The notes beneath the pieces were generated by a model. It was not told where the DNA came from. It saw only the letters and a list, made by a program, of their open reading frames with translations, and did no database searches. Made by a program: the position numbers and the translations under genes. From positions 707 to 64,706 of the forward strand of contig JBDHWD010000006.1 of the NCBI GenBank assembly GCA_039810005.1: DNA of 64,000 nucleotides, written 5' to 3'. Of the stretch, positions 11,695 through 39,799 are shown piece by piece. Positions within the stretch are counted from its first letter, which is position 1. Every line of letters begins with the position of its first letter. The DNA is from Thermomicrobiales bacterium (GTDB taxonomy: Bacteria > Chloroflexota > Chloroflexia > Thermomicrobiales > CFX8).

Positions 11695-11773
11695 TCACTC
11701 GACTGCCTCGCCGGGCATTATCGACGATGGCATCGTATTCGCAACTGGAGAAGAGATCGTTGGAGGTGACCGA

Positions 11774-18333: not shown

Positions 18334-18409
18334 GAATTCGGTTCCTCCCCTGAGAATCGTTTCGTCGATTCCTGACGAGTGTTCGCTCAATCTGATCTGA
18401 CGACACTGT

Positions 18410-20722: not shown

Positions 20723-20763
20723 AAATGCCTCCCCATATTCAGCGCGTTCGACTCTTTGCTGGC

Positions 20764-20803
20764 TCAACTCGCATGACAGTTGCGCTACTGTCATGCGAGT
20801 TGA
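20764..20803 (-). other. Intercistronic stem-loop between the SBP and peptidase genes
   Basis: Perfect 16-bp inverted repeat TCAACTCGCATGACAG(20764-20779)/CTGTCATGCGAGTTGA(20788-20803) with an 8-nt loop. Confidence 0.6.
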
Positions 20804-20845
20804 ATGTCCGCTGTGTCCCACGGTTCTGCGATCCAACGCAGTCGC

Positions 20846-22615
20846 TCAGGCCAGAGACGCCTTGTCGAGCTCGATGATTCGACCGGCGTGACTCAGCGTA
20901 TATCCAGTGAGCTTTGGCTGAATCGCCATGAGCGATGCGCCATGCCACAGCCAGACGGTGAGCTGGTTTTCCTGGAACAGCATCTGGGCCCGCTTGGCAA
21001 TATCTTTACGCTTGTCAGAGTCAAGTTCCATTTCGAAATTGTCTGACAGCGTCTGCAATTCGGTGGCAATCTGCTGGAGCTCTGGAGTCGTCGCATCATC
21101 AATCTGTGTAATGGACCAGTAGGACTCAGGCGCCCACGAAGCCTGAATGGCGCTTGCTGAGGCGATGACTGATCCCTGAGAATGGTAGGTGACGTTCCAG
21201 TCTCCCTGGTTCTCGCGCCACTGATCAAGGTAGGCATTCCACTCCAGGGTGGAGATCTCCGAGTCGATTCCGACCTTCTTCAACTGTTCCTGGATGATCT
21301 GATTGTAGAGACCCCATCCTGCGAAATCACTGGAGAGTATGCTGACAGAGAGCGGCTTGCCGTCCTTCTTGCGGATCCCTCCGTCACCTTTTGTCCAACC
21401 TGCGTCTTCAAGAATCTGCTCGGCCTTGTCCGGGTCGTAGTCAATCATCGGCACGTCTTCAGTGTAGAACGGTGAGTTGGAATTGACGCCGGCTCGCGAC
21501 TTCTCTGCATACCCAAAGAGCACTTGATCGATGATCGTGTCACGATCAATGGCGTAGGCAATTGCTTGGCGCACAGCCAGGTCAGACGTTGGCTCGCGCG
21601 AGACGTTGATGCTGATGAACTGGACTCCCGGAGCGGTCGTGGTCTCAATCGTAGCTCCGGCGTCCTTTGCGGTGCCCACATCTTTGGCATCAAGGCCGAT
21701 AACCTCGATGGTTCCCGCTTGCAATTCGACGAGCTGGACATTTGTCTCTGGAATGATCCGAACCTCGATACCATCCAGAAGCGGCGCGCCGTTCCAGTAG
21801 TCGTCGTTGCGGACGTATTTGATGCTGCTTCCGGGTTCGTACGAGTCGAACTTGAATGCCCCGGTGCCGATCGGATGATCATCGAAGCTCCCGGAACTAG
21901 CAGCCTTTGGACTGATCTGCATCGCTCCCCAGAGCGCGAGGCCGTTGTAGGCAAAGAACACCTTCAGTTCGCGGAGGACGATCTTGGCGGTGTAATCATC
22001 AACGACTTCGATATGATCAACCGGTTCGTACGTGGTATAGGACGCCGAGTCTCCCGACTCAATGTGGCGCTCAATGTTAAATTTGACCGCCTCGGCATTG
22101 AACGGCTCGCCGTCGTGGAATGTGACGTCATCGCGGAGATGAAGCGTGTACTCCATGCCGTCTTCAGAGATTTCCCAGTCCGTCACGAGACACGGTTGAA
22201 GCTCTTCATCTTCGTCTAACACCAGCAGTCGATCGACCATGAAGTGGACTGATTGCCAGGTTGGCCAAGTGGACTTTGTCAGATCCCAGCTGGCCGGGTT
22301 TGCCGCGACAGCCACGCGGGCTGTACCGCCAGTCTTGCCGGAGCCTTCTGTCGTCGTTGTCGTGGACTCTGATGCGCCTGTTGTTTCGGTCGCCGATCCG
22401 GAGCCACTGTCGCTGGTTGCTGCTGGAGCGGTTGGCTCGGTCGATCCGGAAACCGTCGTGCTGGTTGGATCGCCTTCGTCATCGCTGCCGCAGGCAGCAA
22501 GAAGCGTTCCGACTGTCGGCAACGCAATACCGACGGCGGCCGCACGGCGAAGCATGGTGCGCCGGTTCAGTCGCGAGGAAAGGGCCTTGGCCGTGAGATC
22601 GTTAAGCCGTGTCAT
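20846..22615 (-). CDS. ABC transporter substrate-binding lipoprotein, family 5
   Basis: Start ATG 22615 after GAGAGGAA. RRTMLRRAAAVGIALPTVGTLLAACGS Tat/lipobox signal, S/T-rich linker, SBP_bac_5 body. Confidence 0.8.
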   Translation of the reverse strand: MTRLNDLTAKALSSRLNRRTMLRRAAAVGIALPTVGTLLAACGSDDEGDPTSTTVSGSTEPTAPAATSDSGSGSATETTGASESTTTTTEGSGKTGGTARVAVAANPASWDLTKSTWPTWQSVHFMVDRLLVLDEDEELQPCLVTDWEISEDGMEYTLHLRDDVTFHDGEPFNAEAVKFNIERHIESGDSASYTTYEPVDHIEVVDDYTAKIVLRELKVFFAYNGLALWGAMQISPKAASSGSFDDHPIGTGAFKFDSYEPGSSIKYVRNDDYWNGAPLLDGIEVRIIPETNVQLVELQAGTIEVIGLDAKDVGTAKDAGATIETTTAPGVQFISINVSREPTSDLAVRQAIAYAIDRDTIIDQVLFGYAEKSRAGVNSNSPFYTEDVPMIDYDPDKAEQILEDAGWTKGDGGIRKKDGKPLSVSILSSDFAGWGLYNQIIQEQLKKVGIDSEISTLEWNAYLDQWRENQGDWNVTYHSQGSVIASASAIQASWAPESYWSITQIDDATTPELQQIATELQTLSDNFEMELDSDKRKDIAKRAQMLFQENQLTVWLWHGASLMAIQPKLTGYTLSHAGRIIELDKASLA

Positions 22616-22765
22616 ACTGGTTCCTCTCACCTCAGAAAAGTTGCCGAGTCGGTTCACAAACGCTCTTCTCGATGTCACTGATCGTTGATCTAGCCTGATG
22701 CCACTCTCCTCCCACTCGTTATTAATGGGACCTATGTCGGACGATGGATCAGCCTTCGGCGCGGT

Positions 22766-23731
22766 CTAGCGAAGGTGCGGATCGAGCGCGTCGCGTAATG
22801 CATCGCCAATCATGTTTAGTGAGATCACCGTGGCGAAGATAAGCAGGCCCGGGAAGATCATCAGATGCGGAGCTTCGCGAAGATAGCCACGACCCACACT
22901 CAACATCGCGCCCCACTCGGCTGTCGGCGGCTGTACGCCGAGGCCAAGAAACCCGAGGCCGGCAGCAGTGAGCAGTGAGCCAGCGATTCCCAGCGTGGCG
23001 TAAACGATAATCGGGGCCATGCTGTTGGGCAGTAAATGGATGTACATGATCCTGCTGCGACTGGCACCCATGGCGCGAGCAGCCTCAACGAATTCCTGCG
23101 ATTTCAGCGCGAGAACACCGGATCTGACGATGCGCGCGAGCGTTGGCGTTCCCCAGATCGTCAATGCGACGACGAGGTTCAGAATGCCGGGGCCAATCAC
23201 CGCAACAATCAGGATCGCCATCAGGATGCCCGGAAAAGCGAACATGATGTCGATGAGGCGCATTACCAACGTATCGGTCCAACCGCCGAAAAATCCGGAG
23301 ATCAAGCCCAGGAATGTTCCCAGGATCACCCCCCCGGTAGTGCCGACGAGCCCGATGAACAGTGAGATGCGTCCTCCGTATGCGAGCCGCGAGAACACGT
23401 CTCGTCCCAACTCATCGGTTCCGAGCCAATGCTCGGACGAAGGTGACTGGAGTCTCGAAAGGAGAGATTGCTCATTCGGGTCCTGTTGGGCAATGACAGG
23501 CGCCATCAGTGCGATGGCGACAATCAAAAAAAGGAACGCCGCGCCGGCCATTGCAAACCGGTTGCGCACAAGCTCGCGGAGAACCCGACGGCGCCGACCT
23601 TGTGAACTGTTGTCGGACTGGTGGAGCGTTATCGTTGCGTTCTTGTTTGGCTGAGACTCTTGCAAGGGTGCTTCAGATGCACGATTGACTGACAAGACCA
23701 TACTCCCCATTCTTCTCGCAGCAGACAGCAA
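22766..23731 (-). CDS. ABC transporter permease, DppC/OppC type
   Basis: Multi-TM. HWLGTDELGRD loop and EFVEAARAMGASRSRIMYIHLLPN EAA region. Start uncertain (ATGs at 23731, 23710 and 23701). Confidence 0.8.
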   Translation of the reverse strand: MLSAARRMGSMVLSVNRASEAPLQESQPNKNATITLHQSDNSSQGRRRRVLRELVRNRFAMAGAAFLFLIVAIALMAPVIAQQDPNEQSLLSRLQSPSSEHWLGTDELGRDVFSRLAYGGRISLFIGLVGTTGGVILGTFLGLISGFFGGWTDTLVMRLIDIMFAFPGILMAILIVAVIGPGILNLVVALTIWGTPTLARIVRSGVLALKSQEFVEAARAMGASRSRIMYIHLLPNSMAPIIVYATLGIAGSLLTAAGLGFLGLGVQPPTAEWGAMLSVGRGYLREAPHLMIFPGLLIFATVISLNMIGDALRDALDPHLR

Positions 23732-23743
23732 GTATCGGCACGA

Positions 23744-24697
23744 TTAGCTGAAGCGGATTCGCGGGTCGATATAGGCAAGCAACAGGTCTGTGATGAGGTT
23801 GCTGAACACAAATCCGATCGCGATCAGCAAAACTGTTGCTTGAACGACAGGGAAGTCCCGACCGTTGACACCATCGATCAGGTAGCGCCCGATGCCGGGC
23901 CAGGCGAATACCGTCTCGACGATCACAGTGCCGCTGAGGATGTAGCCGAAACTCAGTCCCAGGAGCGTCACGATCGGGATCAGCGCGTTGCGTAACGCGT
24001 GTCGGATTATGACGACGCGTTCATGAACGCCCTTCGCGCGAGCCGTGCGCACATAATCGTCATTGATTACCTCGAGCATGCTTGAACGTGTGTACCGGGC
24101 GAGGCCTCCAGCGCCGCCCAGCCCCAAAACCAGAACTGGAAGCACCATGTGCGTCAGCCCATCGATGCTCAGAAACGGTCCGCCAAGCCCGGATGGAGGA
24201 AGGATGGGGATCCGGACTGAAAATAGGAGAATCAGCATTAACGCGAGCCAGAAGCTCGGCACGGAAATGCCGAACAATGCTACGAACATCGAGACGTTGT
24301 CGATCCAGCGCCCGCGATACACCGCGGATATGACGCCAACTGAAATCCCGATGACTGCTGACAGCAGCAGCGACACTAATCCCAGGCGCAGTGTATGAGG
24401 AACACGGCGCTTCAAGTCTGCCGTGACTGAACGTCCCTCGCGAAGTGATTCGCCAAAGTCAAAGCGCGCTAATTTCCCAACATAGTCGACATACTGGATG
24501 TAGATGGGTTTGTCGAATCCATACTTTGCATTCACCTGGCGCTCAAGCTCTGCGCTCTTATCCGGCGGAATATCGGGAGGGATGAACAACGCCACCGGAT
24601 CACCGGGTGCCATGTGCATCGCAAAGAAAACCAGGGTGATAGCGCCGAGAATGGTCGGCACAGCGAGGGCTAGCCGCTTCAGTACGTATGTGCGCAT
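23744..24697 (-). CDS. ABC transporter permease, DppB/OppB type
   Basis: MRTYVLKRLALAVPTILGAITLVFF start chosen at 24697. Contains DYVRTARAKGVHERVVIIRHALRN. Confidence 0.85.
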   Translation of the reverse strand: MRTYVLKRLALAVPTILGAITLVFFAMHMAPGDPVALFIPPDIPPDKSAELERQVNAKYGFDKPIYIQYVDYVGKLARFDFGESLREGRSVTADLKRRVPHTLRLGLVSLLLSAVIGISVGVISAVYRGRWIDNVSMFVALFGISVPSFWLALMLILLFSVRIPILPPSGLGGPFLSIDGLTHMVLPVLVLGLGGAGGLARYTRSSMLEVINDDYVRTARAKGVHERVVIIRHALRNALIPIVTLLGLSFGYILSGTVIVETVFAWPGIGRYLIDGVNGRDFPVVQATVLLIAIGFVFSNLITDLLLAYIDPRIRFS

Positions 24698-25174
24698 CTC
24701 GCAGGTACTCTTCCCCTCGATATCTCGCCTATTGACTCGACACGGCTGCGCCATCGCGAAGCGACGGGTGGCATCGCGCTGATACCAGCGCCTGCACGAC
24801 ATTCGCCAGAGTCGGACGAGACGGCGGTGTCCAGTCCTGATCCTGAGATGTGTCCAACAGGGTCAGCCTCTTGAGATTTCATCTCCAGCAGTTTCCTGCC
24901 GAACCTGAGTGCTGACTTGATGCCTGTCGATGATGTGCAACTGAGTCGATCCAGGGTATTGAGGGCAAACCTAGCAGTTCCAGAATGCTGTGTCAATAAT
25001 CTCAGGCGTCTGATAATCATGTTACAGTATGCTGAACTGCTCAAAAGTACGATCCAGCCAGCACGATCCTGATGGCTGCGCGCCCGATGGCACGCTTGAT
25101 CGGCGGTCAGGCACAATGAACTTTTCGCATAGCGGTTGACATAGCATGTCGTACAGAGAGGCGGGGCTGGGGAG

Positions 25175-25897
25175 ATGGCGATGATGGTGGACGATACGCA
25201 CGAAAACGGCCGTCATCGAGCCGAGGCGGCCTACGATCAGATCAAAGCGTCAATCATTCGTTGCGAGTTGCAGCCCGGTCAGCAGGTGACCGAAGAGCAG
25301 TTAGCGGCACAATATGGAGTCAGCCGGGGGTCAATCCGGCCGGCACTGAAGAGGCTGTATCAGGAGCAATTCATCCAGCTGGCAACACGCAATCGCTATT
25401 TCGTCGCACCGATTACCCTGAAAGATGCGAATGACGTCTTCGAAATGCGCCTGCTTGTGGAGCCTCATGCTGCTCGTCAGGCAGCCGGTCGCATCGACGT
25501 GGACACTCTCGCGCGATTGAGAGAGTTGAGCGTCGTCCACTACATTCCAGGTGATGCCAGTAGTGCCGAAGCATTTTTGCGCGCGAATACCGAATTCCAC
25601 GTGACCATCGCCAGGGCGACCGGAAATGCTCTACTCGGCGAGTTTGTCGCTACGCTGCTCGATCGGGAGGAACGCATCAACAGGTTGGCCCACCTGATTG
25701 GCGACCGAAACCGAGACGCCCATAATGAGCATCGTGATCTCGTTGAGGCACTGTCGGACCGTGATGGCGAACGCGCAGCCGCCGTTATGGCTGATGGAAT
25801 CATTTCAGCGCGCGGGTTTGTGATCGACTCAATGCTGTCGAGCCCTGCACTGCTGACAACCAACCTGGCCGGCCCGCCAGCCCAGTCCCCTCACTGA
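25175..25897 (+). CDS. GntR family transcriptional regulator (FadR/FCD subfamily)
   Basis: N-terminal wHTH (EEQLAAQYGVSRGSIRPALKRL) with a C-terminal all-helical FCD-like domain. Divergent from the ABC operon. ATGs at 25181 and 25184 are alternative starts. Confidence 0.8.
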   Translation: MAMMVDDTHENGRHRAEAAYDQIKASIIRCELQPGQQVTEEQLAAQYGVSRGSIRPALKRLYQEQFIQLATRNRYFVAPITLKDANDVFEMRLLVEPHAARQAAGRIDVDTLARLRELSVVHYIPGDASSAEAFLRANTEFHVTIARATGNALLGEFVATLLDREERINRLAHLIGDRNRDAHNEHRDLVEALSDRDGERAAAVMADGIISARGFVIDSMLSSPALLTTNLAGPPAQSPH

Positions 25898-26700
25898 TCC
25901 TTCTCGGGTGCCCCAATTCGGACGACTGAGCGCTGAATATTGGCGGTTGAGAGGTTGGAGACGCGGGCGAGCTGGGTGAGGCCTTCGATGCCTTCGGGGG
26001 AGAGGGTCCATTCCTGGTCGGCCAGGACTTCGACGAGCAGGTCGCGGTCGATGCCGTGGTCGCGCGAGAGGTTGCGGCGCAACTCGCGGCCGCGCTCGAC
26101 GCCGATCTCCATTGCCCGCGCCAGCCGATTCAGCGCTGCCGAGACGGACGCCGGGTCGCGGGTGAGGTGCGCGCGGCGCGCGAGACAGAGATGGCTGACG
26201 AACGGTGTGTTGGTCATCAGGAACCAGGCGCGGCCGAGGTCTTCCTGGTAGATGTGGTCGCCCTCAAGCGGGATCAGCCCGGATGGCCCGTCGCTAACGA
26301 TCGCGTGCAGATCATCGACGTGCGCGGGCTCCTCGGTCCACTCCGCTACGCTGATGCCGTAGAACGAGCGCAGCGTTGCCAGGGCGACGGCGCGTCCAGC
26401 CGGCGCGACGCCAGTGACCGAGACGCTGACGTTGTCAACGTCGTCCGGGCGCGTGTGGGTGGCCAGCGTGAGCATCGAGGCGCGACGGGCGGCGACGGCA
26501 TAGTCGGCGACGATGGCCCACGAGTCGAGCATTGTCAGTCCGGAGATGCTGTCGATCAGGACGACGTCGGCATCGGATGCGCGCGTGGAGGTCATTCCCG
26601 GAACGAGATCGACGTCTGTCTGATCGGCCCAACCCGCCGCGAACGGGTAGGCCATTCTGGCTGTTTCCAGTCGATGATCGATTGCAATCCGTAGCGTCAC
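25891..26700 (-). CDS. MqnA/MqnD-family (periplasmic-binding-protein fold, DUF178-like) protein
   Basis: 269 aa. Pattern LRIA...YPF..G, DLG..WF..T..PFVSHLCLARR and a C-terminal helical region resembling chorismate dehydratase MqnA. Assignment is from memory only. Confidence 0.4.
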   Translation of the reverse strand: MTLRIAIDHRLETARMAYPFAAGWADQTDVDLVPGMTSTRASDADVVLIDSISGLTMLDSWAIVADYAVAARRASMLTLATHTRPDDVDNVSVSVTGVAPAGRAVALATLRSFYGISVAEWTEEPAHVDDLHAIVSDGPSGLIPLEGDHIYQEDLGRAWFLMTNTPFVSHLCLARRAHLTRDPASVSAALNRLARAMEIGVERGRELRRNLSRDHGIDRDLLVEVLADQEWTLSPEGIEGLTQLARVSNLSTANIQRSVVRIGAPEKDQ

Positions 26701-26763
26701 GCGCCCTCCCTCATGCCCTCTATTGGCCGGATCGAAGTGTACGCGGCGCGTCGTTTCCCGTCG

Positions 26764-27774
26764 TCAGGCAGCCGGTTTGTGGGCGATCGCGACCATCTGC
26801 GAGCCACGATGGAGCTTGCGGATGGCGAACGATGCGGGGAGGGTCACGAGGAAGAACGGGATGACGCCGGCGGGCTTAGTGATGACGGGTACTACGGTTC
26901 GATTTACAACCCTGCGCATGCCTCTACTGGAGTCGCTATCGTTTATCCAGAGTCCAATACTGCTGACCAAGAAAATGATCTCGTTATGCATCGCTCCGAG
27001 CCGGCCCCGCTGGCTCATGATCTTTGGTCCGATAAATCCGGCCGTCCGAAGAGCTTGTCTCATATGGCGTGGTGAGAAAACGGAGTAGTGGCGTGGGAAG
27101 TCATTGCCGATCCAGTACGTGCCGAACACCTTTGACTGGATGGAGTTTCGGTTTGGCACCGAAAGCACGACCGCGCCTCCCGGCCTGAGTAGGTCGTAAA
27201 CATGACGCAAGGTGTCGAGCGGCTGTGGGGTGTGCTCCAGAACCTCCCACATCGTCACCGCATCGAACGATCCAGGCTCGAATGACGCATCCTCAACGAA
27301 GCCGTTGTATATGTCGAGTCCGTGACGCTCGGCGGCGTAGGCGGCGGCGCAGCTGTTTGGCTCAACGCCCCGCGCATCCCACCCTTTGCCCTTCATCGTC
27401 GCGAGAAAATCGCCGACGGCGCAGCCGATATCCAAGACGTTGCGGCCGTCGAGTGCAGCGTTGATAACAGTCTCGCAACGCTTGTCAAAATCATATTCGG
27501 CGATCGATCTAACATAGTCTGGCTGATCGAAGACGGAATTATAGACAGGATAGTTTTCGGGATAGTGGCGTTTGATTTCCTCGGCGTCGGGACGCGGAGA
27601 GAGAAAGAGAAACCCACAGTTGGCACACTCGGAGAGGGTGTACTCGCCCTCGACGCCACACATCCGGTCCCAGCCCCGGACGCGAGGCGTGCTCTTATCG
27701 TGCCCACACAACAGGCAACGAACGGTCTCCATCTCTGCGGTCCCTTCTGTGGCAGTGGTTCCTGCCGCGGTCAT
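26764..27774 (-). CDS. Class I SAM-dependent methyltransferase with N-terminal Cys4 zinc ribbon
   Basis: CLLCGH...CANCGF followed by SAM motif I VLDIGCAVGDF. Its ATG overlaps the upstream gene's stop (ATGA at 27771-27774). Confidence 0.7.
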   Translation of the reverse strand: MTAAGTTATEGTAEMETVRCLLCGHDKSTPRVRGWDRMCGVEGEYTLSECANCGFLFLSPRPDAEEIKRHYPENYPVYNSVFDQPDYVRSIAEYDFDKRCETVINAALDGRNVLDIGCAVGDFLATMKGKGWDARGVEPNSCAAAYAAERHGLDIYNGFVEDASFEPGSFDAVTMWEVLEHTPQPLDTLRHVYDLLRPGGAVVLSVPNRNSIQSKVFGTYWIGNDFPRHYSVFSPRHMRQALRTAGFIGPKIMSQRGRLGAMHNEIIFLVSSIGLWINDSDSSRGMRRVVNRTVVPVITKPAGVIPFFLVTLPASFAIRKLHRGSQMVAIAHKPAA

Positions 27775-30728
27775 CCGCCGGTTACGTCGGCGGAGAGCAA
27801 CGGCCCACGGAACGTGACGTGGGCGGGGAGCGTCGGCGGCTCCAGCAACGAGAGTTCCCAGCGCGCCGGTTCCGTCTCGCTGAACCCGCTGCGCCGTAAG
27901 TAGTCGAGCACCATCGCGTTGCGCTTGCCTTCAATATACGGCGCGACGAGGCGAGTCGCGCCCTGTGACACGGCGAGGTCGGCGATGCCGGCCAGGAATG
28001 CGTCCTCGACGCCGCGCCCGAGCGCTCGACAGCTCATCAGCAGCGTGTCGATTTCGGCTACGCCGTCTCCGTCTGGCGGACAGACAAAGACGACGCCGAC
28101 GAGCCCATAGTCGCCGAAGCGGTCGGCTGCGTTCAGCACAAGCACGGCTGCATTCTGCGAGAACGCGCGGACTTCCTCAACAGTTCGGCGCTTGAGCGAG
28201 AGGTTGAACTGATTAGTGCGCTGGGTGAGCTGCGCGACGCGCGCCCACTCCTGATCGTCCGGTCGGTGCAGGTCGACGTGCAGATCGAGGCTGGCGAGGA
28301 AGTCTTCGAGGCTAGCGGACTTGGTCGACTCGCGTCGCCGCCGTCCTTCTTCCTGCATCATGCGGGTGCGGGCAGCATCGACTGCCGTGGCCTGCGCGCC
28401 GTCGAAAATCCAGAGCCGCGCCAGGGTGTCGGCGTAGGCGGTCGGCTGCGTTGGCATCGGAACGACGTGTACCTCCGGCACGCGCGTCGCCACTTCGAGC
28501 CGCACGGCCGGGTCATCGTCGAGGAAGACGAAGGCATCGAGGCCGAGGTTCATCTCGTCGGCCAGCGCCCGCAGGTTCTCCGACTTGTGGTTCCAGTTCA
28601 CGCTCCAGGTCGCGATGTCCTCGGGCCGCAGAATCATGCCCGGGTGGCGCTCGAAGACCTCCAGAACGTCCGCCTCCTCATTGCGGCTGACGACCGCGAG
28701 GAGAACGCCGCGTTCCTTCAGGCGCTTGAGCTGCATCTGGAAGAGCTGATAGGCGCGACCGGGACCGTCCGGACCCAGCTCGATGCCGTCCATGCCGACC
28801 TCGCCGATAACGCCACCCCAGAGCGTGTTGTCGCAGTCGATCGCAATCGCCTTGGCCGGAGAGCGACGACGTCCGCGAATGGTGCGCGCCAACGCGATGC
28901 CCAGCTCCTGGTATGCGCGTGGCGAGTATGGCGCGCGCGAGAGCATCTCGCCCGCGTCGTCGCGCGCGCGCTCGATGCCGATCTCCTCGATGACTGTTGC
29001 GAAGTCGAAGAGTGTGATGCCGGCGATGTCGGTCATCTTCCGCGACCACGTCCGCCGGATCGACTCGGCTGTAGCACGGTCGATCGGCGCTGCTGAAGAG
29101 ACGAGCGGCGGGAGTGTGCCGACCAGCAGCTCGCCGGCCATCGAGCCGATCGAAACAAAGTGCTGCAGCGCGTCAGCGATCTGCTCGATGCGTGCTTGCG
29201 TGGCTGCGTTCGAGCCGGCCCAGAGGTCTTCGGGCCGCGTCAGCACGACCTTCACCCCGGCCCGGTTTGCTCCGAACGGTCCGTGCTCGTCGAGCAGCGT
29301 CTGAATGATTTGATCGTAGTCGGCGAAGGAGCAGGGCAAGTCGAATCCGAAGGCCGCACCCCAGAGGCGCAGCGACGACGCGAGCGGCTGGGCGGTGAAC
29401 GACGCGGCGATGGTGACCGGCACCACGAGCCGTTCATCGGGTCCTGTGGGTGGCTGGGCGGCCAATGCGCGCGTCGCCTCCTGATGGTCGAGCAGCGGGA
29501 GCATGTCGATATCGTCCGGCAGGTCAGACGTAGTCGGAGCGGGCGCGTGAACCACGGCGCCGTTGGTTGCGCCGATTGCTTGCGCCGGCAGAGTGCCGAG
29601 GCGGTTATGGATCGCGTCGTCGATGTCGCGCAGCGTCTTGAGCCGATAGATGTCCTCCTCATCGACCGAGACGCCGTAGCGGTCGAAGATGGCGGCGGCA
29701 ATCGCAAGCTGGCCCAGCGAATCCCACGAGGAGCAGGTATCGCTGCTGAGGTCGTCCGGCGCGGCGTCTGGCGCGATGTCGAGCGCCGTCAGCACGAGCC
29801 GCCGAAGGTCGGCCTCGGCTTCGGTCGGTGCCCCTTCGACGACGTTGGCCGGGATGGGAGGCTGCGGCGCTGTGTCGGCGCGATCGACGAATTCGTCGCG
29901 GGTGCGCCGGTATTGCGCCGGGTTGCCGCCCCAGACCTGTCCGGCCGGGATGTGGGTCATTGCTGCGACGACCGCGCCCGGCTCGACGATCGCGTCATGC
30001 TCGATGACGGTTCCCAGACCGACGCGCGACTCACCGCCGATAGTGGCGCGATCTCCGATGCGGATCGGTGAGCTGAGGTAGACGAGGCTGCCGTCGGCGC
30101 GGATGGAAACGCTGTGCGCAACCAGCACCGCGCCGCCACCGATGACGACCTGGTTGCCAATCTCAGTCAGGTCGGGGTCGTAGATCCGGCCCCAGTTGGT
30201 GACATCCTGACCGATCGAGCTGGATGGCGCGTAGGCACGCAGGACCAGGCGGCTGAACGTGGCCACCGAGCCGAGAAGCTGGACCAGTGGCAGGCCGGAA
30301 ATCAGCGCCAGGCGGCGGTAGCAGACGATCGCCGTGACGACGTTGATGTCGTCCTTCACGACCTGCTTGAGCTCGGTGTTCTTGGCGACGACGCGGAAGC
30401 GCGGCTTGGGGTAGCGTCCGCCGATCGAACGGACGATGGCCGCCGAGATAGCCAGGAAGATGGTGAGCCAGATGACGTACAGGACTGGCGCAAGGATGAC
30501 CGCCAGGTACCACGACCACGGGATCACCAGGCCGGAGAGCGCGATCAGACCGACAATAGCGGCAGCCGCAACAATCATTGGAGCGATCAGGAAACCGACC
30601 CCCACCAGATCAGCGGTGGCCGCAGCAGCAGACGGACCGGAGAGGCGAAGACGCATAGCAGTTCTCCCGGAAAGACCAGTTCGGGTGTCAGACAAGGCCA
30701 GAATAACAGGCGCAACCTGCATCAGCAA
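27771..30728 (-). CDS. Multidomain membrane protein: TM helices, hexapeptide (LbH) acyltransferase, acyl carrier domain, FkbH-like HAD-IIIC phosphatase, GNAT-like domain
   Basis: Hydrophobic helices at aa 41-100. Hexapeptide repeats at aa 186-275 (VVIGGGAVLVAHS..IRIGDRATIGGESRVGLGTVIEHDAIVEPGAVV). ACP-like SSWDSLGQLAIAAAI (Ser337). HAD motif I AIDCDNTLWGG (aa 629-639) and FLDDDP. C-terminal MSCRALGRGVE GNAT-like region. Confidence 0.7.
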   Translation of the reverse strand: MLMQVAPVILALSDTRTGLSGRTAMRLRLSGPSAAAATADLVGVGFLIAPMIVAAAAIVGLIALSGLVIPWSWYLAVILAPVLYVIWLTIFLAISAAIVRSIGGRYPKPRFRVVAKNTELKQVVKDDINVVTAIVCYRRLALISGLPLVQLLGSVATFSRLVLRAYAPSSSIGQDVTNWGRIYDPDLTEIGNQVVIGGGAVLVAHSVSIRADGSLVYLSSPIRIGDRATIGGESRVGLGTVIEHDAIVEPGAVVAAMTHIPAGQVWGGNPAQYRRTRDEFVDRADTAPQPPIPANVVEGAPTEAEADLRRLVLTALDIAPDAAPDDLSSDTCSSWDSLGQLAIAAAIFDRYGVSVDEEDIYRLKTLRDIDDAIHNRLGTLPAQAIGATNGAVVHAPAPTTSDLPDDIDMLPLLDHQEATRALAAQPPTGPDERLVVPVTIAASFTAQPLASSLRLWGAAFGFDLPCSFADYDQIIQTLLDEHGPFGANRAGVKVVLTRPEDLWAGSNAATQARIEQIADALQHFVSIGSMAGELLVGTLPPLVSSAAPIDRATAESIRRTWSRKMTDIAGITLFDFATVIEEIGIERARDDAGEMLSRAPYSPRAYQELGIALARTIRGRRRSPAKAIAIDCDNTLWGGVIGEVGMDGIELGPDGPGRAYQLFQMQLKRLKERGVLLAVVSRNEEADVLEVFERHPGMILRPEDIATWSVNWNHKSENLRALADEMNLGLDAFVFLDDDPAVRLEVATRVPEVHVVPMPTQPTAYADTLARLWIFDGAQATAVDAARTRMMQEEGRRRRESTKSASLEDFLASLDLHVDLHRPDDQEWARVAQLTQRTNQFNLSLKRRTVEEVRAFSQNAAVLVLNAADRFGDYGLVGVVFVCPPDGDGVAEIDTLLMSCRALGRGVEDAFLAGIADLAVSQGATRLVAPYIEGKRNAMVLDYLRRSGFSETEPARWELSLLEPPTLPAHVTFRGPLLSADVTGG

Positions 30729-30802
30729 TCCGGCGCGAGCAGCGCATTTCTACCGCATACTGTGGCGGGAGACAGCAGGCTTAGAGAGAGGATCGTGGGG
30801 AC

Positions 30803-31783
30803 ATGACGACGTTACTGACCGGTGGGAACGGCTGGGTGCCGAGTTTTGTCATGCGCAAGCTGGCGCGCTCTGGTGAGCGGGTCATCTCCTACGATCTGAT
30901 GCCGGTTGATGACATGTTGCGCGAGCATCTGGGGGATGCGATCTCCAACGTTACGTTCATCCACGGTGACGTTACCGACGTGGATCATCTGCTCGCTATC
31001 GCCAGGAACACCGGTGTCAGCCGGATCATTCACGCGGCGGCCATCACGCCGCGCCTCTGGCGCGAGCAGAAGGAGCCGCGGCGGATTCTCGATGTCAACC
31101 TCGGTGGCACTATCAACGTCCTCGAAGTGGCGCGGGCGCTGCCGAAGTTTGAGCGCATGGTCTACATCGGCTCCGGCGCAGCCTGGGGCTCGGGGCACAC
31201 CGGCGAGACGATCGACGAGGACGCGCCGAGCCTGGCGACCGGCCTCTACGGCATCACCAAGCACACGAGCGAGCGTGTGGCCCTGCGGTACAAAGAACTG
31301 TTTGGCCTTGATATCGTGTCGATGCGTCCGGCAAATGTCTACGGCCCGATGGAGCGCGACACACCCGGCTACGTCGGCGCGACCGAGCTGCGCGAGATGC
31401 TTCGCGTGCTGGTAACCGGCGAGGAGCTGCGCGTGGCCAGCCTCGACGGCCCATACCGCGACTGGACCTATGTTGAGGACATCGCCGAGGGGATCGTCCG
31501 GGCCTGGGCCACGCCGCATCTGCCGCATGACGTCTATTCGATCACCGATGGTCGGCAGTATTCGATTGGCGAGATGCTGGAGGCGTTCAAGCGCGTCTGG
31601 CCGGAGATCGAGTACCGGCTCGTCCCGGAAGGTGAGGCGAATACTCCCCTGCGCGATGAGCCGCGCGGGCCTCGTCCGAAGAATGACCGTCTGCGGGAAG
31701 ACTTCGGCTGGGTGCCAGACACTCCGCTTGATGTCGGCGTAGCCAAATATCTGGACTGGATTCGCGAAAACGGACCACAATAA
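30803..31783 (+). CDS. NAD-dependent epimerase/dehydratase (extended SDR)
   Basis: LLTGGNGWVPSFV Rossmann motif and YGITK (YxxxK). 326 aa. Confidence 0.8.
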   Translation: MTTLLTGGNGWVPSFVMRKLARSGERVISYDLMPVDDMLREHLGDAISNVTFIHGDVTDVDHLLAIARNTGVSRIIHAAAITPRLWREQKEPRRILDVNLGGTINVLEVARALPKFERMVYIGSGAAWGSGHTGETIDEDAPSLATGLYGITKHTSERVALRYKELFGLDIVSMRPANVYGPMERDTPGYVGATELREMLRVLVTGEELRVASLDGPYRDWTYVEDIAEGIVRAWATPHLPHDVYSITDGRQYSIGEMLEAFKRVWPEIEYRLVPEGEANTPLRDEPRGPRPKNDRLREDFGWVPDTPLDVGVAKYLDWIRENGPQ

Positions 31784-32056
31784 CCCGTGGTAGGATGATT
31801 CTTGGCTACTCCAAGCGAATGGACGCGCTACGAGGCAACTGCTGTTTGTCATGCGCATGATCTCGCTGCATTCAATATGCAGCAGTTCGTTTGTGCTTGC
31901 ACGTTTCGTGAGAGCTGGATTCTTCCGGTTCTCGTGTTGCGGTGACCTGTCGCGCGCAGTTGCCCCTGCTGCTCTGACATGGCCTGACGGCGACTCTTCG
32001 CGCCGTAGCGATGCAGCCAGTGAGGCTCGTTCGCTACGTCCAGGCTGAGCGACCGG

Positions 32057-32980
32057 ATGGGTCGGGTGGCTTTGGCCAATATCGCAATTCAAACGGAAAG
32101 CGCCTCATCAATGGCAACAATCTCACACGGCGAGCAGACTCAACCCCGACGCTTCCGCCCGTTTGCCGCGCTCGCCAACACGACCTTCCGGATTGCGCCA
32201 GGCCTGAAGCCGCGCGCGCAAAGGACGATGACGAAGTTGACCTACGAGTACCTGAACCGGCGCGGAGTTGAGACAGGTATCTCGTTCATGAATTACGGAT
32301 ATGCACTCCTGAGCGACGAGCCGCGTCTGCCGCTCCCTCCAGAGGACGAGGACCAGCGCGCCGGATTCCAGATGTACAACGCGGTCGCCGGCGCGATCGA
32401 CCTGACGGGAATGGACGTACTTGAAATAGGATGCGGGCGTGGTGGCGGGGCCGCGTTCGTCGCGCAGCATCTCGCGCCGCGCAGGGTGACCGGAATAGAT
32501 CTGGCGGAACGAGCGATTGAGCAGTGTGTCGCGAACCATCGCGATGATCGGCTGCGGTTCAAGCAGGGCGACGCCGAGAATCTGCCGTTCCGAGAGCCGG
32601 CCTTTGACGCCGTGATCAATATCGAATCGTCGCACGCGTACCCCGACTTCGATCGCTTCTTGCGTGAGGTCCACCGTGTGCTGCGTCCTGCTGGCCATCT
32701 GCTCTTCGCAGACTTCCGCGAAGTCGAAGCGATTCCGCACCTGCGCAGCCAGCTTGCGCAGGCCGGCTTCACGATTGTCGAAGAAGAGGCGATCACGGCG
32801 AACGTCCTGCGCTCGCTGGACGAGAACGCCGGTCGAATGGCCGATGTCGTGCAGCGGTCGGTTCCGAAGCCGCTGCACGGTCTGGCCCGCGAATTTCTGG
32901 CCTCCGAGGGCAGCGTGCTCTACAAGGGCTTCCGCAACGGCGAGCTTGAATACGTCCGCATCGTCGCGCAGCGCGACTGA
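32057..32980 (+). CDS. Class I SAM-dependent methyltransferase, Rv2952-like (lipid O-methyltransferase family)
   Basis: [50 protein letters not shown] and C-terminal [13 protein letters not shown]. These parallel the remembered sequence of the mycobacterial phthiotriol/phenolphthiotriol dimycocerosate methyltransferase. Start uncertain (32057, 32111 or 32228). Confidence 0.7.
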   Translation: [307 protein letters not shown]

Positions 32981-33951: not shown

Positions 33952-34470
33952 ATGAGTGAAGCCATCGGACAGGAGAGTGCTTATCGCGTGCGCAGTCGTC
34001 GACTCCACGTCGTCGTTCGTACGCTCTACGGCGGATCGCGCCCGGATGCGCCGATCGGCTCGGTGATCGACACGGCGGCGTGGCAGCGCCTCCGTCCCGT
34101 GATCGTTGCGCGTGGGTGGGAGCAGCGGGTCATCATCAGCGTCAAGCTGGCTCACACGCTGATATTCCTCGTTCTCTCCAGTGTCATCGTCCGGTTCGCC
34201 TGGTCGGGAGTGCATGGGAGGTGGGCACGCTGGATGGGGCTGACGCTGGCGGCCGTCGGCATCGAGACTGCGGTGATCATCGCCAATGGCGGGCGCTGTC
34301 CGCTGTCCGGCATCGTCGAGGACCTGGGGGCCGAGAGCGGGACCGTTTCGGACATCTTTCTGCCCGGCTGGATTGCCCGTCGTATCCCGCACGTTTCGAG
34401 CGCCCTGATCGCCGCCGGACTGCTCGGCCTGCTCGTCCGGCGGCTGATACGTCGCTACTCTCCGGCGTAG
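33952..34470 (+). CDS. Small integral membrane protein, function unknown
   Basis: 172 aa from ATG 33952. Three or four hydrophobic segments, plus the GGRCPLSGIVEDLG motif. Confidence 0.45.
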   Translation: MSEAIGQESAYRVRSRRLHVVVRTLYGGSRPDAPIGSVIDTAAWQRLRPVIVARGWEQRVIISVKLAHTLIFLVLSSVIVRFAWSGVHGRWARWMGLTLAAVGIETAVIIANGGRCPLSGIVEDLGAESGTVSDIFLPGWIARRIPHVSSALIAAGLLGLLVRRLIRRYSPA

Positions 34471-34919
34471 GCGCGCTCGATGGTCGCGATGTCGATCTTT
34501 TGCATCTTCAGCATCGCCTGCGTCGCGCGGGAATTGCCTTCGGGATCGCCACTGGAAACCAGCTCAAGGAGCCGGGTCGGCGTGATTTGCCACGAAACGC
34601 CGTACTTGTCCTTCAGCCAGCCGCACTGGCTCTCCTCGCCGCCGTCTGCCGTCAACGCATCCCAGAGTCGGTCGACCTCCTCCTGAGATTCACAGCGCAC
34701 CATGAACGACGTTGCCTCGGTGAACTGGAATTCCGGCCCGCCGTTGATCGTCATGAACTGCTGGCCGCAGATCCGGAACGACGTCGAGATGACGTTGCCG
34801 GTTTGTGGATCGCGCATTCCACTGAGGATTTCGGAATCCTCAAAGAGCGAGACGTAGAACTCGGTTGCTTCCTCGGCCGTTCCATCGAACCACAGGCAGG
34901 GGACGATCTTCTGTGTCAC
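34455..34919 (-). CDS. VOC/glyoxalase-superfamily protein (PhnB-like, 3-demethylubiquinone-9 3-methyltransferase domain)
   Basis: MTQKIVPCLWFDGTAEEATEFYVSLF start and GWLKDKYGVSWQI motif. Confidence 0.7.
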   Translation of the reverse strand: MTQKIVPCLWFDGTAEEATEFYVSLFEDSEILSGMRDPQTGNVISTSFRICGQQFMTINGGPEFQFTEATSFMVRCESQEEVDRLWDALTADGGEESQCGWLKDKYGVSWQITPTRLLELVSSGDPEGNSRATQAMLKMQKIDIATIERAYAGE

Positions 34920-35179
34920 GGTTCTGCTCCTTCATCACTGGCCCCGGCTCCGCTGCCGGTGCCGTATCCGCTCCGTTGTAACCTGGTCGAACGAGCGCGA
35001 CCGAATTCGACAAGGACAACGACAGAGCCGCTTTCCGTGTCGGTGCGTGGCGGTATGCATCAGCATCCACGCCCGATATGATCTCGCGGTGTGCAGGCCT
35101 CATGCACGTTGACGCGGCGCTCGAAGTCAACGTGCCAGCCACAGGCCGCGCGGTGCGGCGATACGAGGGTGAGGGATCG

Positions 35180-37860: not shown

Positions 37861-37884
37861 GTCACGCGCGGTCCGGCACTGACG

Positions 37885-38328
37885 CTACTTGGCCGGGATC
37901 GGTGTGAGGACGAAGACCGGAATCTCCCGCGTAGTCTTCGCCTGGTAGTCAGCATACGGAGGATAGGCGGCAACGGCGCGTTCCCACCACTGGGCCTTTT
38001 CCTCTCCGGTGACTTCGCGAGCCAGATAGTCCCGCTTGACCGGGCCATCCTGCAGTTCGACGTGCGGGTTGGCAACGAGGTTGTAGTACCAGACGGGATG
38101 TTGGGGTGCACCGCCGCGCGAGGCGACGACCGCGTACTCGCCCTCGTGCTCGACGCGCATCAGCGGCGTCTTGCGCAGCTTGCCGGTCTTTGCGCCCACA
38201 GAGGTCACGACGACGACCGGCAAGCCGTTCAGCGTCGTCCCCTTGATGCCTCCCGACCGCTCGTACAGCTCGGCCTGCTCACGTGCCCAATCGGACGTAC
38301 TCGGCGCGTATTCGCCCTTGAGTGGCAT
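37885..38328 (-). CDS. Deazaflavin (F420)-dependent nitroreductase family protein (Ddn-like)
   Basis: 147 aa. Motifs [38 protein letters not shown] and W-W-ERAV-AYP-YA-YQ. Confidence 0.75.
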
Positions 38329-38651
38329 ATTCGTACTCCTTTGTTCCGTGATGCGTCGACCGCGCCTGCACCTGGCTCGCCCGCGCAGGTCAGGGCGGGC
38401 GACGCCGGTTCAGTGTTCATCGTATCCACCGGCGATGCTCCCGCAGACACCATACCGACTATACCCGCACACGCGTGGTCTGATTGCTCTGTCTCACAGA
38501 CGACCGCGACTCGTACGTTCGTCGCGGAGATGCTCACGGAGGCGGATCACCTGGTCATGGTCGCCATCCGTGGTGTCAAGGCGCTGGAACAATTGGCGAC
38601 CAGCTCGCCCAACTTCCTGGTTCGTCCCGCTCTGGGCGAGCGCGCTGGAGG

Positions 38652-39730: not shown

Positions 39731-39799
39731 TCTCGCGATCTCCCTTGTCTCTCCGGTGATTCCCCGTGGTCGTATGGATCCCTTCGCGCCACGGTAGCG

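Follow-up and report, generated by a model that had tools for sequence, protein, structure and literature searches.

A 2TM-LbH – ACP – FkbH fusion protein in Thermomicrobiales and its possible role in acyl transfer

A single minus-strand gene in the window (the whole stretch of 64,000 nucleotides that was analysed) encodes a membrane hairpin, an acyltransferase domain, a carrier domain and an FkbH-type enzyme on one chain, which raises the question of what such a protein might make and on which molecule it would act. Here, we address this question through the reading frame, the individual domains, the gene neighborhoods across the family and the comparison with known systems.

Reading frame, domain order and family

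The open reading frame at 27771..30728 (−) was confirmed to be present and unbroken, and its mechanically called start is a TTG codon. Eight nucleotides upstream of the ATG at 30656 lies GGGAGA, and the MR(L/H)R that follows from this ATG is also where the closest homologues (P0001, P0002 and P0004, 960-961 aa) start. From these two observations, the ATG at 30656 is almost certainly the true start, which gives a protein of 961 aa in place of the 985 aa assigned in an earlier note on this DNA, and lowers the residue numbers of that note by 24. The six segments that the note had read from the translation were all recovered by domain models, an alignment of 27 homologues, AF2 modelling and Foldseek. 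The features of the gene, with the evidence for each, are as follows:

27771..30656 (−): complete gene, 2TM-LbH – ACP – FkbH (N-domain, HAD-IIIC, GNAT-like end), 961 aa; ORF, translation, ATG with GGGAGA, collinear homologues
30414..30629 (−): predicted transmembrane hairpin, aa 10-81, N-in/C-in; Kyte-Doolittle profile, charge distribution, AF2 helices, invariant residues
30219..30413 (−): juxtamembrane region, aa 82-146, with a PKPR motif (K84), a strand at 87-90 and two helices; alignment, AF2, order of elements as in a PosA repeat
29895..30218 (−): left-handed beta-helix (LbH) acyltransferase domain, aa 147-254, carrying a hairpin insert (181-195) and, C-terminally, the motif VWGGNPA; domain models, AF2, Foldseek, alignments to Pls/PosA repeats
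30114..30116 (−): codon of His181, candidate catalytic base of the LbH domain; codon checked, invariant in 27 sequences
29592..29828 (−): carrier (ACP/T) domain, aa 277-355, between disordered linkers 255-276 and 357-375; PP-binding 4e-3, AcpM 2e-3, AF2
29718..29720 (−): codon of Ser313, predicted phosphopantetheine site in WDSLGQ; D312-S313 invariant, codon checked
28857..29510 (−): alpha/beta N-domain of the kind found in long FkbH-like proteins, aa 383-600; Foldseek to 3slr, stand-alone FkbH-like matches
28392..28856 (−): HAD-IIIC phosphatase core, aa 601-755; TIGR01681 9e-14, 3slr by sequence 3e-35, invariant residues
27807..28391 (−): helical linker and GNAT-like C-terminal half of the FkbH domain, aa 756-950, with S875-C876-R877; TIGR01686, Foldseek GNAT matches

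The protein belongs to a family of more than 120 collinear homologues (counted as clusters) with 38-98% identity over 93-100% of its length, spread through at least six phyla. Their occurrence in independent assemblies and phyla refutes an assembly or frameshift artefact joining two or three genes, a possibility that the earlier note had named, for two genes, near 29.4-29.9 kb; 98%-identical copies on 13 contigs also stand against it, no support was found beyond fragmentary or frameshifted database entries of some relatives (e.g., L111), and its probability is practically negligible. The architecture is thus common, as that note had allowed for, but not functionally annotated, the homologues being named only "HAD-IIIC family phosphatase" or "FkbH-like protein". 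Nor was any paper found describing a 2TM-LbH – ACP – FkbH architecture.

Loader, carrier and membrane acyltransferase

The FkbH assignment proposed beforehand is borne out by the TIGR01686 (FkbH) match over aa 601-926 (E=1e-84), whose 284 bits lie far over the cut-off of 147, and the HAD-IIIC and GNAT-like calls stand on the TIGR01681 and Foldseek matches listed above. All HAD motifs are invariant, comprising motif I D607-x-D609, S657, K691 and D713-D714. The N-domain and HAD core together superpose on PDB 3slr, the N-terminal part of BF1531 (Foldseek E=4e-23, target-normalised TM 0.78), and stand-alone FkbH-like proteins align from about aa 385-414 onward. Within the GNAT-like end, Cys876 is invariant, and of 17 other FkbH-like loci examined, 16 have the SCR(A/V)LGR motif. 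Homologues of FkbH form glyceryl-S-ACP from 1,3-bisphosphoglycerate in vitro (PMC3625739), D-1,3-bisphosphoglycerate being the glyceryl source for the characterised enzymes, and occupy the place of A domains in NRPS modules (PMC8949500).

By sequence alone, the carrier domain falls under the Pfam and NCBIfam thresholds; its earlier identification is nevertheless upheld by D312-S313, invariant in 27 homologues, and by the AF2 model, a four-helix fold whose helix II begins at Ser313. This residue is the predicted carrier serine previously numbered Ser337, and only its number has changed. Low-pLDDT linkers of about 20 residues flank the carrier on both sides in the AF2 model.

The N-terminal module begins with a pair of hydrophobic helices, aa 10-40 and aa 49-81 (AF2, Kyte-Doolittle), followed directly by 7 Lys/Arg in 32 residues, a topology from which the LbH and ACP domains are predicted to lie on the cytoplasmic side. 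Conserved residues occur both in helix 2 of the hairpin (P57, Y60, W63) and in the juxtamembrane region, where Y113 and P123 are invariant. The LbH domain matches Hexapep (1e-4) and, at 1e-7 to 1e-5, the models of WcaF and of maltose and galactoside O-acetyltransferases; the Pls/PosA terminal-domain model TIGR02353 matches it with 1.7e-10, its 40 bits lying under the cut-off of 423. Among solved structures, aa 147-254 are matched best by the acetyl-CoA-dependent maltose/galactoside O-acetyltransferases. His181 is retained in some repeats of Pls/PosA proteins and, in a weak alignment (E 0.09), pairs with the His of YHP in 3srt, a maltose O-acetyltransferase.

The likeness to Pls/PosA suspected in the earlier note gains support from three sides. 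A profile search with the 2TM-LbH module recovered, after the family members, proteins with three 2TM-LbH repeats (E 1e-49 to 1e-41) and also true A-T-(2TM-LbH)x3 Pls/PosA synthetases (~1e-22); TIGR02353 was the best NCBIfam match in 9 of the 10 stand-alone 2TM-LbH proteins scanned, covering the whole repeat in one; and the AF2 order of elements (hairpin, strand, two helices, LbH with hairpin insert) equals that of the published PosA model. On the strength of these profile and model matches, the module is one repeat of the Pls/PosA polymerisation domain. By analogy with LbH enzymes in general and with the PosA model, it probably works as a homotrimer.

Gene neighborhood, proposed function and alternatives

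Three further genes surround the fusion gene:

26764..27774 (−): SAM methyltransferase (Methyltransf_23); domain model, start codon overlapping the main-gene stop (ATGA)
30803..31783 (+): divergently transcribed SDR of the NAD-dependent epimerase/dehydratase type, with weak similarity only, to GalE, LegB and HpnA; conserved beside the gene in Thermomicrobiales relatives
32057..32980 (+): second SAM methyltransferase, most similar to lipid O-methyltransferases (phthiotriol dimycocerosate methyltransferase, Mtf2); NF045823 6e-73 and NF045825 2e-66, both under their own cut-offs

Methyltransferases recur elsewhere in the family, the Methyltransf_23 type at L025, L031 and L001, and the type of 32057..32980 at L025, L031 and L030; across phyla, no other neighbor of the family genes is conserved, so the case for a lipid or glycolipid acceptor draws on scattered associations. 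These comprise a GT1 glycosyltransferase adjacent to the family gene (L027, L028, L042) or fused to it (P0155/L111), a highly reducing PKS at L050, a MacB-type exporter at L037, an MMPL protein at L029 and the PDIM-type lipid O-methyltransferase of the window itself. Fusions also extend the C-terminus of relatives with a methyltransferase (P0032, P0013) or with a MaoC dehydratase and an SDR. The P0032 methyltransferase shares 23% identity (E 6e-5) with that of the window, and the fusion therefore links methyltransferases to the protein at the family level only. The parts occur separately as well: a stand-alone 2TM-LbH protein at L030 (43% identity over 246 aa), apparently complete 2TM-LbH-ACP proteins, and split ACP+FkbH pairs accompanied by a DltB-like MBOAT and a protein of weak SGNH likeness in Devosia sp. 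Root635 (L022) or by a PglD-like LbH acyltransferase (L002).

Taken together, we consider it slightly better than an even chance that the protein is a self-contained membrane-anchored enzyme for a small hydroxy-acyl group, which, as we infer for every step, it would load, modify and hand on. The FkbH part, through its HAD-IIIC core and the GNAT-like end with Cys876, would draw a glyceryl unit from a glycolytic intermediate that carries phosphate, strip off this phosphate and bind the unit in thioester linkage to the phosphopantetheine arm at Ser313 of its own carrier. The carrier-bound unit may then be O-methylated, for which the translationally coupled methyltransferase is the candidate, possibly along with the second one nearby; the ATGA overlap and the C-terminal methyltransferase or MaoC and SDR fusions of relatives point to such tailoring. 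Swinging on its two flexible linkers, the carrier would reach the N-terminal LbH domain, a Pls/PosA-type repeat probably trimeric on a six-helix membrane base, where His181 would activate a hydroxyl or amino group of the acceptor at the cytoplasmic membrane face for transfer of the acyl group. The load-and-transfer idea had already been put forward from the DNA, and the split systems with a DltB-like MBOAT or PglD-like LbH lend it independent support. For the family as a whole, small hydroxy-acyl groups are probably put on a membrane-bound acceptor, with a lipid or glycolipid favored by the gene neighborhoods. Against this reading stand the acetyl-CoA dependence, rather than use of a carrier, of the closest solved LbH enzymes, and the sub-threshold sequence scores of the ACP.

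A different outcome would be a Pls-like polymerase, in which glyceryl-S-ACP, or in variants its methylated or lactyl form, is attacked in the trimeric LbH by the hydroxyl of glycerate or of the growing chain, and the resulting polyester or oligoester, for example poly(glycerate), leaves at or through the membrane, much as in polylysine or polyornithine synthesis but with FkbH replacing the A domain. Glycerate combines an activatable carboxyl with nucleophiles, like the diamino acids that are polymerised, and is the oxygen analogue of 2,3-diaminopropionate, which counts for this outcome, as do the homology of the module to the Pls/PosA polymerisation domain, the same three functions (loader, carrier, 2TM-LbH), the many family members that stand alone without obvious acceptor-making genes and the known replacement of A domains by FkbH (PMC8949500). 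We nonetheless judge it unlikely: the two methyltransferases beside the gene at the Thermomicrobiales locus weigh against it because double O-methylation would remove both glycerate nucleophiles, the GT1, PKS and lipid-exporter neighbors better match the decoration of another molecule, ester formation by this domain type is without known precedent, and many stand-alone members of this LbH class have no carrier or loader nearby.

Rather improbable, too, is that FkbH and ACP merely supply glyceryl-ACP to a ketosynthase, PKS or NRPS, while the LbH is an ordinary acetyl-CoA O-acetyltransferase tailoring the ACP-bound unit or an unrelated substrate and the hairpin an anchor. Characterised FkbH-ACP pairs do feed polyketide and tetronate pathways (PMC3625739, PMC8949500), the nearest solved LbH structures are of the acetyl-CoA-dependent type, and one locus has an adjacent type I PKS and another a FabH-like gene; yet no PKS, NRPS or ketosynthase occurs in the window, in its closest relatives or at most family loci. 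Moreover, the LbH falls in the 2TM-LbH/Pls class and not among soluble acetyltransferases, the invariant residues in hairpin helix 2 would be needless in a mere anchor, and the domain order and flexible linkers suggest that the ACP visits both neighboring domains. The name "HAD-IIIC family phosphatase", assigned by NCBI, together with the intact HAD-IIIC motifs, would suit a phosphatase with non-catalytic accessory domains, but that name is a general label for the family, the match extends over the entire FkbH model and so takes in the GNAT-like half and its invariant Cys, and neither the carrier serine nor the LbH His varies between phyla, leaving this reading very improbable.

Comparison with known systems

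The Pls/PosA synthetases (epsilon-poly-L-lysine synthetase and the delta-poly-L-ornithine synthetase PosA; TIGR02353) come near the protein in joining a loader, a carrier and a membrane 2TM-LbH transferase on one chain, and share with it the homologous 2TM-LbH, the DPDLTxIG and VWGGNPA motifs and a His before the hairpin insert. The acyl donor of their 2TM-LbH domain is carrier-bound. They bear three repeats in tandem, whereas the protein has one, so that a homotrimer is implied in place of their pseudo-trimer; the module is N-terminal here and C-terminal there, an amino acid is loaded there by an adenylation domain whereas a glycerate unit would be loaded here by FkbH, without ATP, and the product may not be a polymer. 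With the FkbH/OzmB/Tmn16-type enzymes that form glyceryl-ACP in methoxymalonyl-ACP and tetronate pathways, and with FkbH domains of PKS/NRPS modules, the protein has in common the FkbH domain, the HAD motifs, the conserved Cys and a phosphopantetheinyl carrier, but its carrier lies ahead of FkbH on the same chain and adjoins a membrane LbH acyltransferase, where those systems have a ketosynthase, a condensation domain or the FkbI/K/G tailoring set.

In the DltABCD system (loader DltA, carrier DltC, MBOAT DltB, DltD), a small acyl group likewise passes from a dedicated carrier to a membrane acyltransferase. There, the transferase is an MBOAT and the acyl group D-alanine; the protein has no MBOAT, its LbH active site is predicted to be cytoplasmic, and all parts, with a putative hydroxy-acid acyl group, reside on one chain. 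The maltose/galactoside O-acetyltransferase class, to which WcaF and heptaprenylglyceryl phosphate O-acetyltransferase also belong, shares with the protein its LbH fold, its C-terminal GNPA and a His where the catalytic His lies, but its members are soluble, use acetyl-CoA and have neither membrane hairpin nor carrier domain. Finally, the pseudaminic acid of Campylobacter jejuni NCTC 11168 with its 2,3-di-O-methylglyceroyl group provides a precedent for O-methylated glyceroyl on a bacterial surface molecule. At its locus, a HAD-IIIC protein encoded on its own is presumably accompanied by ACPs, a methyltransferase and an LbH N-acetyltransferase, a set that the split L002 genes with their PglD-like LbH resemble; unlike in the protein, the genes are separate and the putative transferase would be soluble, acting on a nucleotide sugar.

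Gene structure and domains of the window protein

The reading frame singled out by the earlier note exists on the minus strand at 27771-30728 and is unbroken within the window. Its mechanical start, a TTG at 30728, and an ATG at 30722 were both dropped in favor of the ATG at 30656, because the latter has a suitably spaced GGGAGA upstream and the nearest homologs (98%, 83%, and 66% identical; 960-961 aa) begin at the same MR(L/H)R. The resulting 961-aa numbering, used here throughout, replaces the 985 aa originally assigned and turns Ser337 into Ser313. A two-gene fusion or frameshift artifact, which had been considered, was ruled out by collinear full-length homologs and by the invariant residues in their alignment. 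The main gene and its associated genes are the following:

26764-27774, minus strand: SAM methyltransferase, its start overlapping the main gene's stop in an ATGA
27771-30656, minus strand: main gene, encoding a membrane hairpin plus left-handed beta-helix (2TM-LbH), a carrier domain (ACP), and an FkbH part (N-domain, HAD-IIIC core, and GNAT-like end)
30803-31783, plus strand: epimerase/dehydratase-type SDR, divergent from the main gene
32057-32980, plus strand: second methyltransferase

All the domains previously read from the translation were recovered with NCBIfam/Pfam, a 27-sequence alignment, AlphaFold2, and Foldseek. The FkbH model TIGR01686 matched aa 601-926 with 284.4 bits (cut-off 146.65) over model positions 3-320 of 323, and the HAD-IIIC model TIGR01681 matched at 9e-14 in NCBIfam; on all sequence criteria tested, the window protein is an FkbH family member. 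The LbH region (aa 158-254) was matched by hexapeptide-repeat acetyltransferase models of NCBIfam and Pfam at 1e-7 to 1e-4 and by the Pls/PosA terminal-domain model at 1.7e-10. The carrier domain was weak by sequence, its PP-binding match (4e-3) being below threshold.

Across the alignment of 27 full-length homologs, with identities down to 38%, the carrier pair D312-S313 (in WDSLGQ), the HAD-IIIC motif residues D607, D609, S657, K691, D713, and D714, and the S875-C876-R877 triad were all invariant. The conserved Cys of the GNAT-like half, here C876, we take to be the acyl-enzyme site of FkbH enzymology. Invariance extended to the membrane module, comprising P57 and Y60 in the second membrane helix, K84 in the PKPR motif just past it, Y113 and P123 in the following helices, and H181 along with the W242-G244-P246-A247 stretch in the LbH. 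Of the 17 further FkbH-like loci inspected, 16 had the motif SCR(A/V)LGR and 16 had IDCDNTLW; the search for the former gave no match in the BryA region (L023).

In the AlphaFold2 model (mean pLDDT 82.7), two long helices (10-40 and 49-81), a short strand (87-90), and two further helices (96-120 and 125-140) precede a left-handed beta-helix (147-252) broken by a hairpin at 181-195. These are followed by a four-helix bundle (279-353), whose second helix starts at Ser313, an alpha/beta domain (383-600), the HAD core (601-755), and a helical segment with the GNAT-like domain extending to residue 950. Disordered linkers of about 20 residues each (255-276 and 357-375) flank the bundle, locating the carrier domain between the two catalytic parts. 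On the strength of the modeled four-helix fold and the invariant D312-S313, this in-cis carrier is predicted to be the acceptor of the FkbH glyceryl unit. In Foldseek searches against the PDB, aa 383-755 matched 3slr, the N-terminal part of the uncharacterized B. fragilis protein BF1531 (E 4e-23; TM 0.78 normalized to target), and the C-terminal end matched GNAT enzymes. The loop connecting the membrane hairpin is devoid of charged residues, and seven Lys/Arg lie within the 32 residues past helix 2. Hydropathy and charge predict both hairpin ends to be cytoplasmic, which would put the LbH and the carrier in the compartment that allows phosphopantetheinylation.

A widespread architecture with a single Pls-type repeat

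A protein search retrieved 129 clusters at E ≤ 1e-5, and about 100 of the best 120 of these span at least 90% of the query; the window's own cluster (98% identical) has 13 members, and the single named one, from a Thermomicrobiales bacterium, assigns the window to that order. Named members of the family belong to Thermomicrobiales, Chloroflexota, Bryobacterales, Gemmatimonadota, Planctomycetota, Thermoguttaceae, Verrucomicrobiaceae, Nostoc, and Anabaena. A scan of species-representative genomes yielded a single full-length relative, from a Chloroflexia MAG; the others, FkbH-only or ACP-FkbH proteins, served as split versions and were not used for context statistics. In the open-access literature linking FkbH to polylysine, polysaccharides, lipopolysaccharide, or transmembrane acyltransferases, and likewise in that on HAD-IIIC and acyl carrier proteins, no description of the 2TM-LbH-ACP-FkbH order was found. 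The earlier note had allowed that the architecture might prove both common and functionally annotated; it is indeed common, but its members bear only the generic names "FkbH-like protein" and "HAD-IIIC family phosphatase". The protein is a widespread, undescribed combination of known parts. A separate metagenome scan with this motif of the LbH retained 80 loci (L054 onward), most of which had LbH-only matches and were set aside; the 16 of these examined had no hairpin, ACP, or FkbH, and their LbH proteins measured about 120-250 aa, apart from two of about 1450-1490 aa.

A 2TM-LbH profile (A2, from aa 1-258 and the corresponding parts of 19 homologs) was searched against 1.84 billion representative proteins, which gave 92 proteins below 1e-30 and 1510 below 1e-10. 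Next after the family itself came proteins of 650-960 aa with three separate matched stretches (E 1e-49 to 1e-41), and further down proteins of 1350-1730 aa, likewise with three stretches (about 1e-22). NCBIfam assigned the long proteins to true Pls/PosA synthetases, mostly well over the TIGR02353 cut-off and carrying an adenylation domain (P0253, P0254, P0261, and P0275), and those of 650-700 aa to stand-alone triple repeats; one of the matched proteins has an SDR ahead of the repeats. Five of these stand-alone proteins (P0213, P0219, and P0223-P0225) have six membrane helices and no adenylation or carrier domain. Nearly all the 215-265 aa proteins in the A2 list open with a two-helix hydrophobic hairpin, and TIGR02353 was the best NCBIfam match in nine of the ten scanned; in one of these, P0273, residues 19-218 matched a complete repeat (model positions 499-695). 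The likeness to Pls/PosA enzymes proposed at the outset is thus borne out by the triple-repeat proteins, the true synthetases, and the stand-alone units alike.

Residue-level alignments revealed a pre-LbH helix, DPDLTxIG, and VWGGNPA common to the window module and the Pls/PosA repeats, and each Pls-type protein retained the His before the hairpin insert in some of its repeats. The published PosA model gives each repeat a membrane-helix pair, two helices plus a strand, and a five-turn LbH, and the elements of the AlphaFold2 model follow the same order. On the window protein, TIGR02353 scored 39.9 bits against a cut-off of 423, aligning aa 158-247 with model positions 611-695 only, and Pfam and NCBIfam gave no AMP-binding/adenylation match. 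By these sequence comparisons, the window protein is outside the Pls/PosA family as defined, and its transferase module is homologous to the Pls/PosA repeat. Sequence, profile, and fold searches of the PDB found no solved structure with a 2TM-LbH or Pls terminal domain. LbH enzymes are trimeric, with active sites between subunits; since the window protein has one repeat only, its module would be expected to trimerize, and by analogy we infer that such a trimer should rebuild the Pls-type assembly.

Split relatives, candidate tailoring genes, and the acceptor

We lean, with modest confidence, toward a mechanism in which the FkbH part would load Ser313 and the LbH would then transfer the acyl group. 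FkbH homologs have an established role in glyceryl-S-ACP formation from D-1,3-bisphosphoglycerate and replace adenylation domains in NRPS modules (PMC3625739; PMC8949500). The linker-flanked carrier, the module combinations among relatives, and the split systems lend computational support to this load-and-transfer reading, which the earlier note had already put forward. Some proteins of about 350-375 aa, which appear to be complete, consist of 2TM-LbH-ACP, and ACP plus FkbH also occurs without LbH. At L030 6985-7782, immediately upstream of the full-length member P0020, a stand-alone 2TM-LbH paralog of 265 aa is encoded. It shares 43% identity with the window's module across 246 residues, hairpin included, and mixed trimers of both forms are conceivable.

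In Devosia sp. Root635 (L022; NZ_LMGZ01000019.1, 8956-14995), a Dlt-like cassette around FkbH includes an MBOAT matching the DltB model at 1e-59. Its order is a divergent methyltransferase, a small ACP reading frame, FkbH (10205-11947), a glyoxalase-fold protein, the MBOAT, and a 406-aa protein showing a faint SGNH signal; these genes suggest that an extracytoplasmic polymer is modified with a glycerate-derived ester. The ACP-FkbH pair of a proteobacterial MAG (L002) follows a gene for a PglD-like LbH N-acetyltransferase. Because split ACP-FkbH pairs adjoin an MBOAT in one case and a PglD-like LbH in the other, FkbH-loaded carriers appear to deliver recurrently to acyltransferases, not ketosynthases, the window protein representing the all-in-one form. 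A Glyoxalase_4 (methylmalonyl-CoA-epimerase-like) gene adjoins FkbH at L029 7543-7968, L002 12064-12540, and L022 11944-12423; its product may epimerize the hydroxy-acyl thioester on the carrier at the alpha-carbon.

Relatives such as P0032 and P0013 have a class I methyltransferase fused at the C-terminus, matching the gene order of the window, where the methyltransferase is translationally coupled. Orthology of the coupled enzyme and the P0032 fusion is not supported (23% identity, E 6e-5), so that the fusion argument is valid only at the level of class I SAM methyltransferases. The second methyltransferase, two genes off and separated from the main gene by the SDR, is nearest to PDIM lipid O-methyltransferases and Mtf2 (6e-73, below cut-off). 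The five-gene block (25891-32980) is syntenic in Thermomicrobiales relatives of 65-66% identity (L025 and L031). After the coupled methyltransferase, there and in the window (25891-26700, minus strand), comes a gene for a 269-aa protein with a weak MqnA/VitK2_biosynth match (6e-9), either a block member or a housekeeping neighbor; in the clustering of 23 loci, synteny of the PDT and MqnA-like genes was confined to Thermomicrobiales.

In P0027, P0015, and P0025, a MaoC-type dehydratase and an SDR are fused at the C-terminus (the family member at L028 8001-12512 belongs to this set). From this domain content, the carrier-bound glyceryl could be converted to lactyl, glyceryl-S-ACP being dehydrated and then reduced to lactyl-S-ACP. 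For the bryostatin loading module, the same conversion has been put forward. O-methylated glyceroyl also has a precedent on bacterial surface molecules, as 2,3-di-O-methylglyceroyl decorates pseudaminic acid in C. jejuni (PMC3068675; bioRxiv 10.64898/2026.04.20.719630).

In the 23-locus clustering, methyltransferases alone recurred beyond close relatives. GT1 glycosyltransferases adjoin family genes in L027, L028, and L042, and the P0027/P0015/P0025 loci hold two GT1 genes, a methyltransferase, an SDR, an alpha/beta hydrolase, and two phosphodiesterase-family genes, hydrolases and phosphodiesterases being found near family genes in both L027 and L028. In P0155 (L111 8001-12258), a GT1 is fused ahead of 2TM-LbH-ACP and the FkbH part follows in shifted frames, reflecting either a pseudogene or an assembly error. 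At L050 1896-9623, a single-module highly reducing type I PKS of 2575 aa (KS-AT-DH-cMT-ER-KR-ACP) is divergent from the family member. Other scattered neighbors are a MacB-type ABC exporter (L037), an MMPL protein (L029), and a sulfotransferase (L045), and the Anabaena lutea gene is essentially solitary. Contexts of the stand-alone and triple-repeat modules (L112-L116) gave no clear acceptor clue; the neighbors at L116 3511-5562 are a FemAB-like/Acetyltransf_6 protein, two EamA half-transporters, and a glyoxalase-fold protein. Considering the scattered neighbors, the membrane anchor, and the conserved helix-2 residues, we tentatively favor a lipid or glycolipid at the inner leaflet as acceptor. 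The long-chain 1,2-diol lipids of Thermomicrobia were dropped as product, since some family members come from phyla that are not known to contain them.

The remainder of the window is devoted to housekeeping and transport, with no PKS, NRPS, or GT1 among the annotated reading frames. Its 18001-26000 stretch has a G+C of 0.57-0.59 against about 0.64 elsewhere and encodes a DPP-IV/S9 peptidase, a family-5 solute-binding protein, two Opp-type permeases, and a GntR/FCD regulator. Four reading frames of 173-511 aa had no Pfam match:

34080-35081, plus strand: NCBIfam match also absent
37120-38655, plus strand: overlaps an opposite-strand DAO-family gene and may not be real
38652-39173, minus strand
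39224-39802, minus strand

Alternative readings and comparison with known systems

Pls-like polyester synthesis, in which one glycerate unit would be esterified onto the next as in Pls relatives, seems unlikely, and in the window locus the paired methyltransferases count against it because they would cap the nucleophiles. Similarly unlikely, in our view, is a reading of the whole family as membrane polyester synthases organized like Pls/PosA, in which FkbH would replace the adenylation domain to give oligo- or poly(glycerate). Its product would be formed at the membrane, with O-methylglycerate as monomer in relatives with a fused methyltransferase and lactate in those with a fused dehydratase and reductase; if true, this would be a new natural polyester class and a new route, unrelated to PHA synthases. 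Also unlikely, we consider, is a supply module with an acetyl-CoA-dependent LbH. The window protein has the LbH fold and the C-terminal GNPA motif of the maltose/galactoside O-acetyltransferase class, and these enzymes are the Foldseek matches of its LbH in the PDB. His181 aligned with the YHP His of 3srt, but in a weak alignment (E 0.09); the maltose O-acetyltransferase equivalog model gave 23 bits against a cut-off of 314, and the curated equivalog models were all far below their cut-offs.

Under the favored loading of Ser313 and transfer by the LbH, bacterial envelopes are predicted to contain a modification not yet seen, in the form of esters or amides of glyceryl, O-methylglyceryl, or lactyl groups, or else a polymer, with Chloroflexota, Acidobacteriota, Planctomycetota, Verrucomicrobiota, Gemmatimonadota, and cyanobacteria as predicted carriers. 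One expressed protein should suffice for testing, because loader, carrier, and transferase share one chain, and hundreds of database entries now called "HAD-IIIC family phosphatase", a misleading label, would be renamed.

Dlt-type systems share the carrier-dependent acylation but not the acyltransferase: no MBOAT is among the annotated reading frames of the window, and a DltB-like one was seen only in the split relative from Devosia. To our knowledge, the Pls-type polymerization domain has been known solely with amino-acid adenylation loaders and solely as a triple repeat, whereas in this family the single repeat appears as a free-standing, widespread membrane acyltransferase module, offering a simpler, presumably homotrimeric model for how Pls-type domains work. 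In Pls/PosA synthetases, an A domain serves as loader and three tandem 2TM-LbH repeats lie at the C-terminus; the window protein, without an A domain, carries one repeat at its N-terminus, joined to a wholly different loader that would draw a three-carbon hydroxy acid from glycolysis.
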